Notes under the pieces: model-generated | What the model was told of the DNA's origin: nothing | What the model saw: only the letters and a program-made list of their open reading frames with translations | The model's database searches: none | Virus record (IMG/VR): IMGVR_UViG_3300023239_000322 | Location: 1 to 64,000 of that record | DNA length: 64,000 nt | Source: a virus | Strand: one strand, 5' to 3' | Position numbers and translations under genes: made by a program | In this document: piece after piece, positions 6,224 through 45,120 of the stretch | Layout: each line of letters begins with the position of its first letter | How positions within the stretch are numbered: position 1 is the first letter of the stretch

Positions 6224-6415
6224 ATGACTATAGCAGAACTACAACGGTTAGCAGGCATTACTGAGAAGAAGAAATCAAAGTCTTTCAGTAACATCAGTTA
6301 TACTGCGGCCGAAAAAGCTAAAATAATGAAAAAAAGAAAAATTAAACCAGGCACGCCTGAATGGTTTAAGTTGTGGTTTTCGAGACCCTATCTCACAGGC
6401 GAAAAACCTTACTAA
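6224..6415 (+). CDS. Small basic hypothetical protein
   Basis: TAAATA 5 nt upstream; ELQRLAGI N-terminal motif; PGTPEWFKLWF. Confidence 0.6.
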   Translation: MTIAELQRLAGITEKKKSKSFSNISYTAAEKAKIMKKRKIKPGTPEWFKLWFSRPYLTGEKPY

Positions 6416-6939
6416 GCAACCTTTGCTTTTATACCTAAATACTGTTCCCACTTAGGGTCTTTGATTTCTACATGACTGTTGCGCCATGCTGATGCTAGTC
6501 CCCAATAGTCTGGTTTAAACGGTTTGCGTATCGGCTTTCTCAGTTTATCAGCCTTGCGACTATTGCAACTCTTACATGAAGTTACACAGTTCTCCCACGA
6601 CGTTTTGCCATTTAGGCTACGTGGGATAACATGATCTATGGATAAATCTTTGAAGTCAAACGTATCTGCACAGTACTGACACTGATATAAATCACGCAAA
6701 TAAACATTTGTTCTACTGAAACGTACATAACGTTTAGGATTAAAGTATTCCTTGGTAACTGCTACACTAGGCACATTTAAGGTAAGTTTTTCGCTGTTTA
6801 TGTGCCAATCAGGATAGGTTTCCAGCACTTGTATGCGGCCTAAGAACATCAATTTAACTGAGTGGTGCCAATGTATTACAGACAGCGGCAGTACTGAAAT
6901 GGGGGTGTAATCTTTGTTTAGTAGCAGAGTATCTGACAT
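6412..6939 (-). CDS. HNH endonuclease (McrA/HNH_5-like)
   Basis: RDLYQCQYC...SIDHVIPRS...WENCVTSCKSCNSRK; likely start MSDTLLLN at 6939. Confidence 0.9.
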   Translation of the reverse strand: MSDTLLLNKDYTPISVLPLSVIHWHHSVKLMFLGRIQVLETYPDWHINSEKLTLNVPSVAVTKEYFNPKRYVRFSRTNVYLRDLYQCQYCADTFDFKDLSIDHVIPRSLNGKTSWENCVTSCKSCNSRKADKLRKPIRKPFKPDYWGLASAWRNSHVEIKDPKWEQYLGIKAKVA

Positions 6940-6967
6940 AAGTACTGTATATAAAGTATATATCATT

Positions 6968-7615
6968 ATGTCAAACGAAGCAAACATTATTAAGTCTCCT
7001 TACCAGAAGGTAAGCTTCACAGAGGAGCAAATACAGGAATTCATGAAGTGTGCAGACCCAGACACCGGGCCGACCTTCTTTATGAGTAACTTCTTTAATA
7101 TACAGCACCCCACAAGAGGTAAGATGCTGTATAAGCCATTTGAGTACCAGGATAGACTGATCAACGCTTACCATACAAACCGATTCAGCATTAGTCTTAT
7201 GCCCAGGCAGACTGGTAAAACAACCACTGCCGCTGGGTACCTGCTATGGCGGGCCATGTTTAACCCAGATAGCACAATTCTTATTGCCGCACACAAGTAC
7301 ACAGGTGCGCAAGAGATTATGCAACGTGTTAGGTATGCATACGAACTTTGCCCGGACTATATACGTGCTGGTGTTGTTAGTTACAACAAAGGCAGTATAG
7401 ACTTTGAAAACGGATCACGTATTGTTTCACAAACAACCACCGAAACAACTGGACGAGGTATGAGTATTACACTGCTATATTGTTTAGGTGGAGACACTAT
7501 TGTTCGTATTCGAAACAAACAAACGTTGGCAGAAGAAGATATTACATTAAAGGATTTATGTATTAAACTTTATAGTCCAGATGAATATTCAGGTGATGAA
7601 TTTGCATTCGTATAA
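6968..7615 (+). CDS. terL: Terminase large subunit, N-terminal fragment fused to split intein N-half
   Basis: gp17-like Walker A PRQTGKTT and TGRGMSITLLY, followed by the intein block A CLGGDT; likely start MSNEAN at 6968. Confidence 0.92.
   Translation: MSNEANIIKSPYQKVSFTEEQIQEFMKCADPDTGPTFFMSNFFNIQHPTRGKMLYKPFEYQDRLINAYHTNRFSISLMPRQTGKTTTAAGYLLWRAMFNPDSTILIAAHKYTGAQEIMQRVRYAYELCPDYIRAGVVSYNKGSIDFENGSRIVSQTTTETTGRGMSITLLYCLGGDTIVRIRNKQTLAEEDITLKDLCIKLYSPDEYSGDEFAFV
7481..7612 (+). mobile_element. Split intein N-fragment (about 30 aa core plus a 14 aa tail)
   Basis: CLGGDTIVRIRNKQTLAEEDITLKDLCIKL resembles the short IntN of atypically split TerL inteins (AceL-TerL/Cat type). Confidence 0.88.
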
Positions 7616-7618
7616 ATA
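7611..7618 (+). promoter_or_regulatory. T4-type late promoter TATAAATA for the endonuclease and IntC-TerL genes
   Basis: Exact T4 late consensus overlapping the stop of terL-N; ATG at 7623. Confidence 0.65.
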
Positions 7619-7622
7619 CAGT

Positions 7623-8516
7623 ATGAACAAACTAGAGCAATTTAAACGTAGAAATCAAAAAAGAAACTCGCAACTATATTCAGATTACTTAACAGAAAAT
7701 ATAGATTATATACTTTGTCCAGTAAGTAACGAGCGATTAAGTATGATAAAAACAACATACATTGAACGTGTACTAGAGATGACCGTAGCAGAATATGACA
7801 AATTGTTCCCTGGTGTTAGAGGTGTAACGCCCGCCCGCCGAAAAAATATCAAAGATGGCTTAAAAGAAATAGATAAGACTAGTGGATTAACGAAGCACCA
7901 GCTGGCATGTGTTAAATCAAAACAGACATTATCCAGTCTGGATTCAGACGGTGTATCAGGATACGCCAAACTAGGCAAAAAGACCCGTGCTACTCATATG
8001 AACAATATAGACCAATTTGGCAGAAACGGTTATTCACAATTAGCAACACATGCTATTGTAAAAGGCAATAACACTAAGGTTAAGAAAGGAATTATATTAG
8101 ATCCTGCACTACGAAACGAATTTTACCGTTATAAGTCAATAGTATTATATCTTACCGAAAAACAGCGATCAGCTATAACAACTGGATACAAAACAGGAGT
8201 TGCTGGAGTTGCTGGGGCCTACCATATAGACCATATATATTCTATACTACAAGGATATAAAGATAATGTTAGTCCATTATTGATAGGTAGTAAAAGTAAT
8301 TTACAAATGTTGCCTTGGCATGATAATTTATCAAAACATGGTAAGTGTACTATAACCTTGGATACTTTATTCAACCGTGCTAGTTATAATATAGATAGAT
8401 CAAAAAGTGAATTTGATGTTTTTTTAAATATGATTCGTTATGACATAAAAGAATCTGCATTGGTTAGTGGTGCAATGCTAATAGAGAGGTTTAATGAAAC
8501 AAACTTACGCACCTAA
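7623..8516 (+). CDS. Free-standing HNH-like homing endonuclease between the split-intein halves
   Basis: C-terminal YHIDHIYS...NLQMLPWHDNLSK; N-terminal CPVS..MTVAEYDKLFPG; located inside the fractured gene. Confidence 0.7.
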   Translation: MNKLEQFKRRNQKRNSQLYSDYLTENIDYILCPVSNERLSMIKTTYIERVLEMTVAEYDKLFPGVRGVTPARRKNIKDGLKEIDKTSGLTKHQLACVKSKQTLSSLDSDGVSGYAKLGKKTRATHMNNIDQFGRNGYSQLATHAIVKGNNTKVKKGIILDPALRNEFYRYKSIVLYLTEKQRSAITTGYKTGVAGVAGAYHIDHIYSILQGYKDNVSPLLIGSKSNLQMLPWHDNLSKHGKCTITLDTLFNRASYNIDRSKSEFDVFLNMIRYDIKESALVSGAMLIERFNETNLRT

Positions 8517-8829
8517 TACAGAATACCAAATTTTTACACCCAACGGTTGGGAAGATTTTGAAGGCATTTTTGTAAATGAAACTGCAAATAAAGACTCTCG
8601 AAAAATAACATTTAATGATGAGTCGTTTATTATTGCTACCCTTGAGCATCGATTTTTTATCAGTAATACTGAAATTAAAGTAAAAGATATTGTACTAGGT
8701 GATAAATTAGATTCTGAAAATACTATTAAAATAGTAACAGCATTAGAAGATATGGTATTAGAAGACACATACGAAATATTTAATGCAGAGAATCATGTCA
8801 TACTAGCAAATAAGATTAATTCTCATCAA
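8494..8829 (+). mobile_element. Split intein C-fragment (112 aa) ending His-Gln, +1 residue Cys
   Basis: IFTPNGW, block B ATLEHRF (TxxH), block F DTYEIFN, block G ANKINSHQ/C. Confidence 0.88.
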
Positions 8830-9882
8830 TGCGACGAGTTCGCATTTGTTCGACCCACCATTGCTAGAGAGTTTTGGACATCCATATCACCCACACTTAG
8901 TACTGGTGGTCAAGCAATCATTACATCAACACCAAACAGTGACGAAGATCAGTTTGCGTTTATATGGAAACAAGCCAACAAGAGTGTAGACGAGTATGGT
9001 AACCCAACCAAAAACGGGTTAGGTATTAATGGTTTCTATGCGTACAAGTCAGACTGGTGGGAACATCCTGACAGGGATGACAAGTGGAAAGAAGAGGAAA
9101 TGGGGCGTATCGGTGAAGAACGCTTCAGACGAGAACACGGATGTGAGTTCTTAATTTACGACGAAACACTGATTAACAGCACCACACTGATTGACATGGA
9201 AGGGAAAGGTCCCATAGAGAAACAAGGACAAGTGCGTTGGTATAAAAAACCTCAAAAAGGCAAAACATACGTAATTGGGTTGGATCCAAGTCTTGGCACA
9301 GGTGGTGATCCCGCGGCTATACAAGTATTTGAATTGCCTACAATGATACAATGTGGCGAATGGCAACACAACAAAACACCAATACAAAGACAAATTGGTA
9401 TCCTAAAGGAAATTTGTGACTACATTGCGGAAATGACACAAACACCCAATAACATTTATTATAGTATAGAAAACAACACACTTGGCGAAGCAGGACTGGT
9501 AGTGATCAGTGATATGGGTGAAGAGAACATCAAAGGCACATTTTTAAGTCAGCCTGTTACCCCGGGTTCGTCTAGACTACACAGAAAAGGGTTTACTACT
9601 ACAAATAGGTCTAAGCTAACAGTGTGTGCAAAGTTTAAAAGTTTGATCGAAAGTAAGAAAATGATTATCAACAGTCAAAACTTAATTAGTGAACTTAAAA
9701 CATTTGTGGCGCACGGTGCTAGTTTTAGCGCAAAACAAGGCGAACGTGATGATTTGGTCATGGCCAGTTTATTGGCATTAAGAATGACACAGGCACTACA
9801 GAGTTTTGACAGTGAACTAGATAGTCACATGCGTGATGGTGCAGATGATTTCCAAGCGCCGATGCCCTTTATAATGATATGA
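8494..9882 (+). CDS. terL: Split intein C-half fused to terminase large subunit C-terminal fragment
   Basis: After SHQ comes CDEFAFV (Walker B), then ITSTPN (motif III) and the nuclease motifs IGLDPS, SIENN, DDLVMA. Confidence 0.92.
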   Translation: MKQTYAPNTEYQIFTPNGWEDFEGIFVNETANKDSRKITFNDESFIIATLEHRFFISNTEIKVKDIVLGDKLDSENTIKIVTALEDMVLEDTYEIFNAENHVILANKINSHQCDEFAFVRPTIAREFWTSISPTLSTGGQAIITSTPNSDEDQFAFIWKQANKSVDEYGNPTKNGLGINGFYAYKSDWWEHPDRDDKWKEEEMGRIGEERFRREHGCEFLIYDETLINSTTLIDMEGKGPIEKQGQVRWYKKPQKGKTYVIGLDPSLGTGGDPAAIQVFELPTMIQCGEWQHNKTPIQRQIGILKEICDYIAEMTQTPNNIYYSIENNTLGEAGLVVISDMGEENIKGTFLSQPVTPGSSRLHRKGFTTTNRSKLTVCAKFKSLIESKKMIINSQNLISELKTFVAHGASFSAKQGERDDLVMASLLALRMTQALQSFDSELDSHMRDGADDFQAPMPFIMI

Positions 9883-10424
9883 AAATTACTCCGGTTGACA
9901 GTCAACATAATCTATTTCTAGTAGAAGACATTTATCCGCAAGATTTGATCGACCAAATTAGTCAAGTAGACTTTATGGAATATGATTGGGAGTTGCAAGA
10001 AGGGCAATTGGATTGGCCTAGACGAAAATTATTACCACCCCAAGACAGCATATTGTTTGAATTGGATAAGCATCTCAATACCGTGCGTCTTGATATTGCA
10101 GATTCAATGAATGGACACTTTCCGGAATATGATTGCTGGAGTAGTTTTTGGCTTGATTACTCTCCATATACTTGTAAAATGCACACAGATGGTGACATAC
10201 CAACAGCAATGCAGATATATCTATTAGATAATGCAGGGTCAGAACATGGTACAGTGTTTTATAACCCAGACAAAACAATACGTTATACGTTCCATTACAA
10301 GGTTAATACAGGTTACTTCATGTTGAATGGCTCAGACCAATATCACGGAGTTCCTAACGTACTCCCTAAGGACCAATTGCGCCTAAGCAGTTACACCTAC
10401 TTCGGCTCTTTTACGCATAAATAA
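9879..10424 (+). CDS. 2OG-Fe(II) oxygenase-like protein
   Basis: HTD...YHGV...RLS facial-triad pattern. Confidence 0.7.
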   Translation: MKITPVDSQHNLFLVEDIYPQDLIDQISQVDFMEYDWELQEGQLDWPRRKLLPPQDSILFELDKHLNTVRLDIADSMNGHFPEYDCWSSFWLDYSPYTCKMHTDGDIPTAMQIYLLDNAGSEHGTVFYNPDKTIRYTFHYKVNTGYFMLNGSDQYHGVPNVLPKDQLRLSSYTYFGSFTHK

Positions 10425-45068: not shown

Positions 45069-45120
45069 CCCATACTGCACCAGCACCGTAAGTATAAATA
45101 CACTATAAGGAGTTTTTATA

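Follow-up and report, generated by a model that had tools for sequence, protein, structure and literature searches.

How does a giant phage come by an intact DNA-packaging ATPase when the gene for its large terminase subunit (TerL) is broken in the middle of a catalytic motif, with an endonuclease-like gene standing between the halves? The question is raised by positions 6968-9882 of the window, by which we mean the whole stretch of 64,000 nucleotides (nt) analysed here, namely the initial 64 kb of an IMG/VR virus record (IMGVR_UViG_3300023239_000322) that is 141 kb long and estimated to be 40% complete. The source is an uncultured giant phage of roughly 350 kb, and the nearest relatives of its TerL belong to the jumbo myoviruses PA5oct, SCTP-2 and the RaK2/GAP32 group. 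We judge, with a probability of roughly 85%, that TerL is fractured by a mobile four-part element inserted in its Walker B codons, that the protein is rejoined by trans-splicing of a split intein, and that the element is spread by its own endonuclease. Given that relatives carry an empty insertion site, that the inserted segments are homologous to known inteins, and that the catalytic residues are invariant, protein trans-splicing is very probably required to join the two halves of TerL.

The locus consists of three open reading frames (ORFs), all on the plus strand, of which the outer two (ORF1 and ORF3) encode TerL. An ORF scan agrees in every detail with the layout, frames and junctions described in a first-pass annotation of this DNA. 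The parts are as follows.

6914/6968-7615, plus strand: ORF1, the N-extein and the N-terminal intein fragment (IntN), ending ...SITLLY/CLGGDTIV...YSPDEYSG-DEFAFV and a stop codon
7581/7623-8516, plus strand: ORF2, the middle ORF, 297 amino acids (aa) from the ATG at 7623, in a different frame
8494-9882, plus strand: ORF3, a 112-aa C-terminal intein fragment (IntC) ending ...NKINSHQ, then CDEFAFVRP and the C-extein
6968..7480, plus strand: TerL N-extein, 171 aa, ending midway through the Walker B strand at ...GMSITLLY
7481..7594, plus strand: IntN, 38 aa, with Cys1, block A (CLGGDT), two strands and one helix
7592..7612, plus strand: extein fossil, GGT GAT GAA TTT GCA TTC GTA (compare C/G-DEFAFV)
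7611..7618, plus strand: TATAAATA box, a T4-type late-promoter consensus, 4 nt 5' of the endonuclease ATG
7623..8516, plus strand: endonuclease-like gene, free-standing and of homing type, 297 aa
8494..8829, plus strand: IntC, 112 aa, with blocks B (TLEH), F and G (SHQ)
8830..9882, plus strand: TerL C-extein, 350 aa plus stop, beginning Cys+1-DEFAFV (the Walker B Asp-Glu) and including the nuclease domain

The N-extein carries an intact Walker A motif (RQTGKT, 7205-7222), matches Pfam Terminase_6N with an expect value (E) of 2.6e-9 as well as two PHROG families for the terminase large subunit (phrog_5989 and phrog_36964), and is 90% identical to the uninterrupted TerL of the related locus L006. 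The C-extein matches Pfam Terminase_6C (E 7e-6) and, in a profile search, the structures of T4 gp17 (E 1e-45). After ...GMSITLLY, ORF1 reads CLGGDTIVRIRNKQTLAEEDITLKDLCIKLYSPDEYSG-DEFAFV-stop, and after NKINSHQ, ORF3 reads CDEFAFVRPTIAREFW... and proceeds through the remainder of the T4-type ATPase and the nuclease domain. DEFAFV is present twice, in copies that differ at five of six third codon positions. The first copy is the translated fossil, which supplies the final 7 residues of ORF1, and the ORF1 stop codon (TAA, 7613-7615) lies inside the TATAAATA box. The junction LLY/CLGGDT proposed in the first-pass annotation stands; IntN comprises 38 aa, and the tail is frameshifted read-through into a conserved DNA element outside IntN. 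Downstream, the 3' end of the middle ORF and the start of ORF3 overlap by 23 nt, and both the IntC start codon and its Shine-Dalgarno sequence (GAGAGG) are within the 3' end of the endonuclease gene.

Are the breaks real? The window is a metagenomic contig, and a contiguous intein with a nested endonuclease could take on this appearance through sequencing or assembly errors, a possibility that had been named at the outset as one that would overturn the interpretation. However, the exact ORF3 protein is recorded on 27 contigs, and the order of TerL-N/IntN, endonuclease and IntC/TerL-C recurs in about 45 independent IMG/VR loci. These loci, together with the cultured Salicola phage SCTP-2, share identical stops, frames and an overlap of 14-23 nt, and the endonuclease has its own start and its own frame. 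We therefore put the chance of an artefact at practically nil. More than 1100 metagenomic proteins of 205-225 aa likewise consist of a TerL-N plus a short IntN fragment.

If the segments between the two TerL halves are foreign, some relatives should lack them, and uninterrupted sites of this kind, which the first-pass annotation had recommended seeking, do exist. Relatives P0001, P0002 and P0006 (90-94% identical) and locus L006 (90%) read ...ITLLYCDEFAFVRPTIAREFW... unbroken, and the intein-less allele of the L006 type has ...CTATACTGTGACGAGTTTGCATTTGTG... at the insertion site. Thus, the closest relatives carry LLYCDEFAFV without interruption, the sequence that joining LLY to CDEFAFV would rebuild in the Walker B strand. 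In a tree built from the ATPase exteins, the sister of the window is the empty L006 (Shimodaira-Hasegawa-like approximate likelihood ratio test support of 99), and the two fall inside a well-supported group of nine empty alleles. At least seven changes between intein presence and absence are required on this tree, four of which are forced by well-supported branches.

The clearest sign of intein mobility comes from a pair of loci, L114 and L013. The former is split and has its endonuclease, the latter is contiguous, and the two are identical at 117 of 117 nt of IntN and at 98.5% of IntC, whereas their flanking exteins are 72-75% identical or less. The pair records a recent horizontal transfer of the intein together with loss of the endonuclease. 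In place of the endonuclease cassette, L013 holds a 21-nt palindromic filler, in which the left flank is copied once inverted and once directly. A single 682-aa frame runs through IntN and IntC, and the IntC ATG is retained as an internal Met. We read L013 as an intein that healed following endonuclease loss, and its in-frame fusion shows that the two halves form one domain.

Is that domain an intein? The split falls between blocks A and B, which is an atypical position, and leaves blocks B to G entirely in ORF3. The diagnostic blocks are recognizable as LLY/CLGGDT (block A), T-x-x-H (block B) and His-Gln/Cys (block G), the last being the Gln variant rather than Asn. When an alignment of the family (A1, 42 rows) was used as a profile against PDB sequences, it matched CatC, the C-fragment of the consensus atypical intein Cat (6dsl_B), with an E of 3e-11, and also gp41-1 (2e-8) and the DnaE, DnaB and VidaL inteins; these matches rank below T4 gp17 structures, which cover the extein part. 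The window IntC alone matches CatC with an E of 0.002, in an alignment that keeps block B and the terminal SH(Q/N)/C in register, and its block B (TLEH) aligns with block B of both CatC and gp41-1. The fold was assessed on the contiguous relative L013, whose IntC and IntN are 56% and 68% identical to those of the window. Its 159-aa intein is predicted with a mean confidence (predicted local distance difference test, pLDDT) of 82.6, and the sole low-confidence stretch is the loop where split alleles are broken. Among the matches listed by Foldseek for this model in the PDB, all are inteins or other autoprocessing domains of the Hint fold (best E 6e-8). The Hint-domain relationship that the first-pass annotation had suggested checking with intein profiles is therefore present in both the family profile and the predicted fold. 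We also considered a group I intron or other RNA instead of an intein; no Rfam match was found in positions 6300-10000 at E up to 1.

In sets of 32 homologues that are 55-75% identical, Cys1 (Cys172), L173 and G175 are invariant on the N-side, as are T49, H52, S110, H111, Q112 and C113 on the C-side. IntN is 60-80% identical to the IntN of other split loci. This pattern bears on a different explanation, in which the TerL fragments work unligated, with the intein halves acting as a non-covalent dimerization module, or in which TerL is a pseudogene in a defective phage. There is a precedent for assembly without ligation, in that the fragmented nrdA of phage Aeh1 is described as assembling non-covalently (PMC3045599). 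Against this, Cys1, T..H, His-Gln and Cys+1 would not all be expected to remain invariant, both ORFs are intact in more than 100 lineages, and the re-fused L013 retains one open frame. In addition, a domain of 150 aa left at the break would interrupt the Walker B beta-strand itself and keep the ATPase from folding. We consider non-covalent assembly or decay of the gene to be very unlikely, and continue with protein trans-splicing.

The middle ORF was originally described as an HNH-like ORF of 297 aa in another frame. Its length and frame are confirmed, and its assignment to the HNH class depends on an invariant motif and a predicted fold rather than on a Pfam match. The C-terminal part contains HIDH...N...N, in which D203, H204, N226 and N235 are invariant. 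In an AlphaFold2 model (pLDDT 90), residues 199-204 and 227-231 form strands and residues 232-237 a helix, giving a beta-beta-alpha arrangement. There is a weak match to the endonuclease VII family phrog_1035 (E 1e-3) and a weak structural match to the HNH protein of phage GVE2 (5h0o; VIA Z 3.9, root-mean-square deviation 3.4, 70 aligned residues). Because the invariant motif is placed on a strand-strand-helix and these two weak matches agree with it, we call the endonuclease HNH-like with moderate confidence. No GIY-YIG or Vsr-like (EDxHD) motif was found in the window endonuclease, and a profile of the endonuclease gave no match among PDB sequences.

The endonuclease has more than 120 homologues, of which nearly all close ones in IMG/VR lie between the IntN and IntC of this TerL site, and the family is tied to the site in about 45 loci. 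Its N-terminal portion of about 146 aa, presumed to be a DNA-binding module, is not always attached to the same nuclease. In relatives L007, L087 and P0349, this N-terminal module (146 residues, up to 87% identical) precedes another kind of nuclease domain, Vsr/PD-(D/E)xK-like, which reads ...IEYQS.AWHADP...YFVW... in the sister loci, and their IntC is just 33-36% identical to that of the window. Because the N-terminal module is shared and the nuclease domains differ, a recombination joint must lie within the endonuclease gene, and the shared module is probably the part that reads the target. In L087/L195 and P0349, the endonuclease N-terminal 146 aa are 87%, IntN 80% and IntC 36% identical to those of the window, and IntC ends in KN rather than HQ. 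That the IntN of L087 is 80% identical and yet its IntC is 36% identical hints at an N-fragment that may be promiscuous in its partner. Endonuclease homologues of 396-420 aa with an extra N-terminal extension of about 100-120 aa occur in P0311, P0319, P0335, P0338, P0340 and P0348, and the extension in P0348 is a second copy of a DNA-binding-like module (DY..CP....R......YI..VL.M). Positions 6412-6987 of the window (minus strand) hold a separate gene for a canonical HNH endonuclease (Pfam HNH, E 8e-16), divergent from TerL, with its start overlapping the ORF1 start by 20 nt. It is kept upstream of TerL in 28 related loci and is 91% identical in L006; since it is also found upstream of uninterrupted TerL, it lies outside the intein element.

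We propose the following sequence of events. The element comprises, in order, the 38-aa IntN, the 21-nt fossil with its TATAAATA box, the HNH-like endonuclease gene and the 112-aa IntC. ORF1 and ORF3 would be translated apart, with ORF3 relying on the start codon and Shine-Dalgarno sequence within the 3' end of the endonuclease gene. IntN and IntC would then assemble into one Hint domain and follow the class 1 pathway, in which a thioester at Cys1 is transferred to Cys+1 and the terminal Gln then cyclizes. The predicted product is a TerL of 521 aa in which the LLYCDEFAFV strand is whole and the junction reads ...ITLLYCDEFAFVR.... The endonuclease, for its part, would most likely cut intein-less TerL alleles at this position and thereby cause the whole element to be copied in.

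Several observations weigh against this proposal and temper our confidence in it. Splicing activity is something that we infer from sequence, and inteins with a terminal Gln reportedly splice more slowly than those with Asn in the few that have been studied. No Pfam intein model exceeds its threshold on the window fragments (Intein_splicing E 0.067, PT-HINT E 0.081), a Pfam scan of 29 members of the endonuclease family gave no match to HNH or any other family, and fold searches with the whole endonuclease gave no Foldseek E better than 0.45 and no VIA Z better than 4. The TATAAATA box is not over-represented in the window (4 copies versus 5.7 expected). Finally, a comparison of the window with L006 reveals no co-conversion tract around the insertion, as identity is flat at about 85%, and therefore acquisition of the element in the window lineage was not recent.

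Why should a copy of the C-extein sequence stand directly in front of the endonuclease gene? In 25 distinct loci, the DNA between IntN and the endonuclease start has the form N-TGA-YRAR-TTTGCATTTG-TATAAATA-N3-5-ATG, of which the fossil is a copy of TGY GAY GAR TTY GCN TTY GTN, the C-extein codons 1-7. In L095-97 the fossil still starts TGT GAC. In most loci, ORF1 stops at the TGA within the fossil, leaving the remainder out of frame or untranslated. Just upstream of the fossil, the window is 1 nt shorter than L087, and because of this shortening the window fossil is read in frame as far as the TAA in TATAAATA. An exact 20-mer search of IMG/VR yielded 51 matches, 41 of them in the IntN/endonuclease context, and the other 10 look like chance occurrences in AT-rich DNA. 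The remaining TATAAATA copies of the window are at 45093, 48810 and 56433 (plus strand), 5-37 nt upstream of start codons; all four copies are on the plus strand, intergenic and just 5' of start codons, a placement that is consistent with T4-type late promoters.

An alignment of the fossil from 18-19 loci permits its constraint to be compared with that of the real coding copy of the same codons, using nucleotide diversity.

Third positions of codons 4-7: fossil 0.18, real coding copy 0.53
First and second positions of codons 4-7: fossil 0.00, real coding copy 0.02
First and second positions of codons 1-3: fossil 0.31, real coding copy 0.00

The 30 nt located 5' of the fossil have a diversity of 0.52, and the TATAAATA box is invariant in 18 aligned loci. 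From these values, the 5' part of the fossil is decaying, while its 3' 12 nt and TATAAATA are constrained and probably serve, as DNA or as RNA, to control the endonuclease gene. Selection on DEFAFV as protein is ruled out, as most loci leave this DNA untranslated or read it in another frame. Mimicry at the protein level was likewise rejected, given that in-frame tails elsewhere vary (DKF, DEL, DNL, STF) and that window and L087 differ by the 1-nt indel. The GDEFAFV tail of ORF1 seems to have no role of its own.

The fossil seems to have arrived with the cassette. In L012 and L013, the position of the cassette corresponds to a point between intein residues ~39 and 40 at which nothing is missing, and the fossil therefore belongs to the invading cassette; this agrees with the gene-breaking model of Dassa 2009 (PMC2677866). 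Two other ideas were considered and set aside. For a homing-endonuclease-gene-first ('HEG-first') intein-less ancestor, in which TerL would be broken directly behind LLYCDEFAFV, IMG/VR holds no exact match of TAY-TGY-GAY-GAR-TTY-GCN-TTY-GTATAAATA. The notion of an N-fragment that formerly contained a complete intein is opposed by the same gapless position in L012 and L013, and BLASTP finds no similarity between IntC and the 95-aa tail of the N-fragment of SCTP-2 (E 3); a 10-bit hidden Markov model alignment of this tail to IntC positions 19-74 is suggestive and does not establish the relationship.

One explanation for the conservation is that the fossil is a putative operator, which the endonuclease would bind at its own TATAAATA promoter, thereby repressing transcription without cutting. 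A feature of the I-TevI type is indeed present, in that a homing-site-like sequence runs into the TATAAATA box of the endonuclease; 15-19 of the 21 fossil nt agree with the consensus of the intein-less target, compared with 15 of 20 for I-TevI (PMC2988022). The fossil adjoins the promoter box, 4 nt before the ATG, and its 3' half is under more constraint than the synonymous sites of the real gene. Endonucleases that have the common N-terminal 146 aa (87%) and differ in their nuclease domains retain the same fossil, and in the L118/L126 lineage the fossil matches that lineage's own extein variant, DELAFV. However, conservation is limited to the 3' 12 nt and the 5' 9 nt decay, and promoter context or an RNA hairpin could equally explain what is conserved. 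We consequently advance the operator as a tentative idea.

The hairpin deserves separate consideration. The fossil could form the 5' arm of an RNA helix (TTYGTAT with RTATGRA) that hides the endonuclease start in read-through transcripts, in which case translation would be limited to transcripts begun at the TATAAATA promoter. Hairpins that hide start codons are described for I-TevI and Aeh1 mobE. A 7-bp helix is formable in 96.8% of cells across 18 loci, versus 29-72% when the partner is slid, and is predicted by ViennaRNA in several loci. Moreover, of 16 regions 5' of endonuclease genes in the fractured genes of Dassa 2009 (PMC2677866), 15 were reported to contain such hairpins, often with TATAAATA. 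Nevertheless, no pair exhibits a compensatory change, three of the seven pairs are G-U, RNAalifold returns a structure without the helix (-1.4 kcal/mol, no covariation), and the helix accounts for only 7 of the 12 conserved fossil bases. We regard the hairpin as rather unlikely. The operator and hairpin functions are compatible with each other and need not be exclusive.

Further evidence relevant to the operator comes from a second TerL intein site, HG/CEF, which is unoccupied in the window (Cys codon at 9142). Relatives are split there at RREHG/CEFLIYDE, with an unrelated endonuclease of the HHIIP(R/K)H type. In six lineages, the DNA immediately after the IntN stop, in another frame, resembles the local C-extein.

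L028: fossil KFVIFDET, real C-extein CEFLIFDET
L117: fossil KFVIVDETLNN, real C-extein CEFVIADETLVN
L107: fossil KFVVYDEMIN, real C-extein CEFLIYDETLVS
L129: fossil KLVMYDATVN, real C-extein CEFLVYDETLIS
L197: fossil ELIIYDETA, real C-extein CEFLIYDETLIS
L199: fossil KFIIYDTK, real C-extein CEFIIFDETLIN

Most of these fossils are followed by an ATAAATA-like box and the endonuclease ATG, with just GTAAAT in L129. The local DNA alignments are individually modest (p about 0.02-0.04 in two loci). Nonetheless, this recurrence favours the putative operator, since two unrelated endonucleases that each have a copy of their own C-extein by a promoter box imply function rather than accident. A broader generalization would be that free-standing endonucleases which fracture genes by way of atypically split inteins have captured, from their own homing site, a copy of the C-extein half and joined it to their late promoter at their 5' edge, where it is kept both as a self-regulating operator and as a fossil of cassette entry, and that this has recurred at two independent TerL sites with unrelated endonucleases; at present we consider this statement doubtful. 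In L199, AAGTTCATA, with which the site-2 fossil begins, is repeated three times in tandem at about 2832-2870, ahead of the fossil and the endonuclease start.

Additional breaks and fragments were observed among the relatives. A third TerL break, in Walker A between residues 84 and 85 and with about 1 kb inserted, is present in L086, L098, L110, L111, L113, L128 and L129, and a Walker A break at GK/C is found in SCTP-2 (L004, 1375-1767, minus strand). With three split sites, TerL may be encoded in up to four pieces in this phage group. In L095-L097, L124 and L128, the real TerL-N is directly preceded by an extra, diverged TerL ATPase fragment. This fragment shares 32-59% identity with that of the window, has an uninterrupted Walker B where this region is seen, and ends near C-extein residue 100 or earlier, depending on the locus.

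If the proposed reading is correct, a widespread group of aquatic giant phages would need protein splicing in order to package its DNA. The locus pairs serve as snapshots of an empty site, a filled site, endonuclease loss with healing, and a swap of nuclease domains, and they also show recent transfer between terminases that are 25% diverged. The extein fossil at the promoter offers a testable idea of how such endonucleases are held in check. For protein engineering, the family is large, natural and uncharacterised, with more than 1100 N-fragments, and it combines a short IntN and Cys1/Cys+1 with a terminal Gln. It is only distantly related to the three atypical TerL inteins used for labelling, and L013 provides a naturally re-fused form in cis.

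As the first-pass annotation recognized, the arrangement is of a known type. The fractured genes of Dassa 2009 (PMC2677866), including a gp17-like terminase from Lake Gatun, have the same order of N-half with IntN, endonuclease, and IntC with C-half on one strand. The overlap of endonuclease and IntC start is 23 nt in the window versus 6-69 nt in that study, and a TATAAATA box upstream of the endonuclease gene is common to both. The terminase intein reported there is also broken after motif N1 and has a C-part of 122 aa (PMC2677866). The endonucleases differ, being GIY-YIG or Vsr-like in Dassa 2009, HNH-like in the window, and Vsr-like in the sister loci L007 and L087. A text search of Dassa 2009 (PMC2677866) found no mention of an extein fossil. 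The closest regulatory parallel is the I-TevI operator, which resembles the homing site at 15 of 20 nt, overlaps a late promoter, and is bound but uncut (Edgell et al. 2004, reviewed in PMC2988022). Both systems place a homing-site-like sequence over a promoter just 5' of the endonuclease ORF, whereas the element in the window is an evident copy of extein-coding sequence and resides in a split intein, not in a group I intron.

The cultured Salicola phage SCTP-2 (MF360958) has a homologous endonuclease (33% identity) directly upstream of an IntC-TerL-C that ends its intein with VSQ/CDEFAFV. Its TerL is in three pieces separated by tens to hundreds of kb. The pieces (L001, L003 and L004) are at about 429.5 kb (minus strand), 256.7 kb (plus strand) and 216-218 kb (minus strand); the C-piece holds an extra contiguous intein, and GenBank labels the final piece alone as terminase. 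SCTP-2 also has a second split at Walker A (GK/C), its N-fragment carries a 95-aa intein part, and there is no TATAAATA fossil upstream of its endonuclease.

Among characterised inteins, the naturally atypically split TerL inteins AceL-TerL and GOS-TerL and the consensus Cat (PDB 6DSL), which the first-pass annotation had named, are the closest in kind. They likewise have a TerL host and are split between blocks A and B. IntN comprises 38 aa in the window versus 25, 37 and 30 aa in AceL, GOS and Cat, and IntC 112 aa versus 104-115 aa; Cys1 and Cys+1 are present as in AceL and Cat (PMC11766414). However, the characterised inteins are inserted at HG/CEF and that of the window at LLY/CDEFAFV in Walker B. 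CatC ends in ...SH(N)/CE (His-Asn), whereas the window intein ends in His-Gln, and the window IntC and CatC are roughly 25-30% identical. Because the site-2 IntC of relatives is closer to CatC (E 1e-11) than the window IntC is (0.002), we interpret the window intein as a distant paralogue at a new site, and not as an allele of AceL, GOS or Cat. It is thus set apart from the known kinds by its Walker B insertion site, its terminal Gln and its HNH-like endonuclease.

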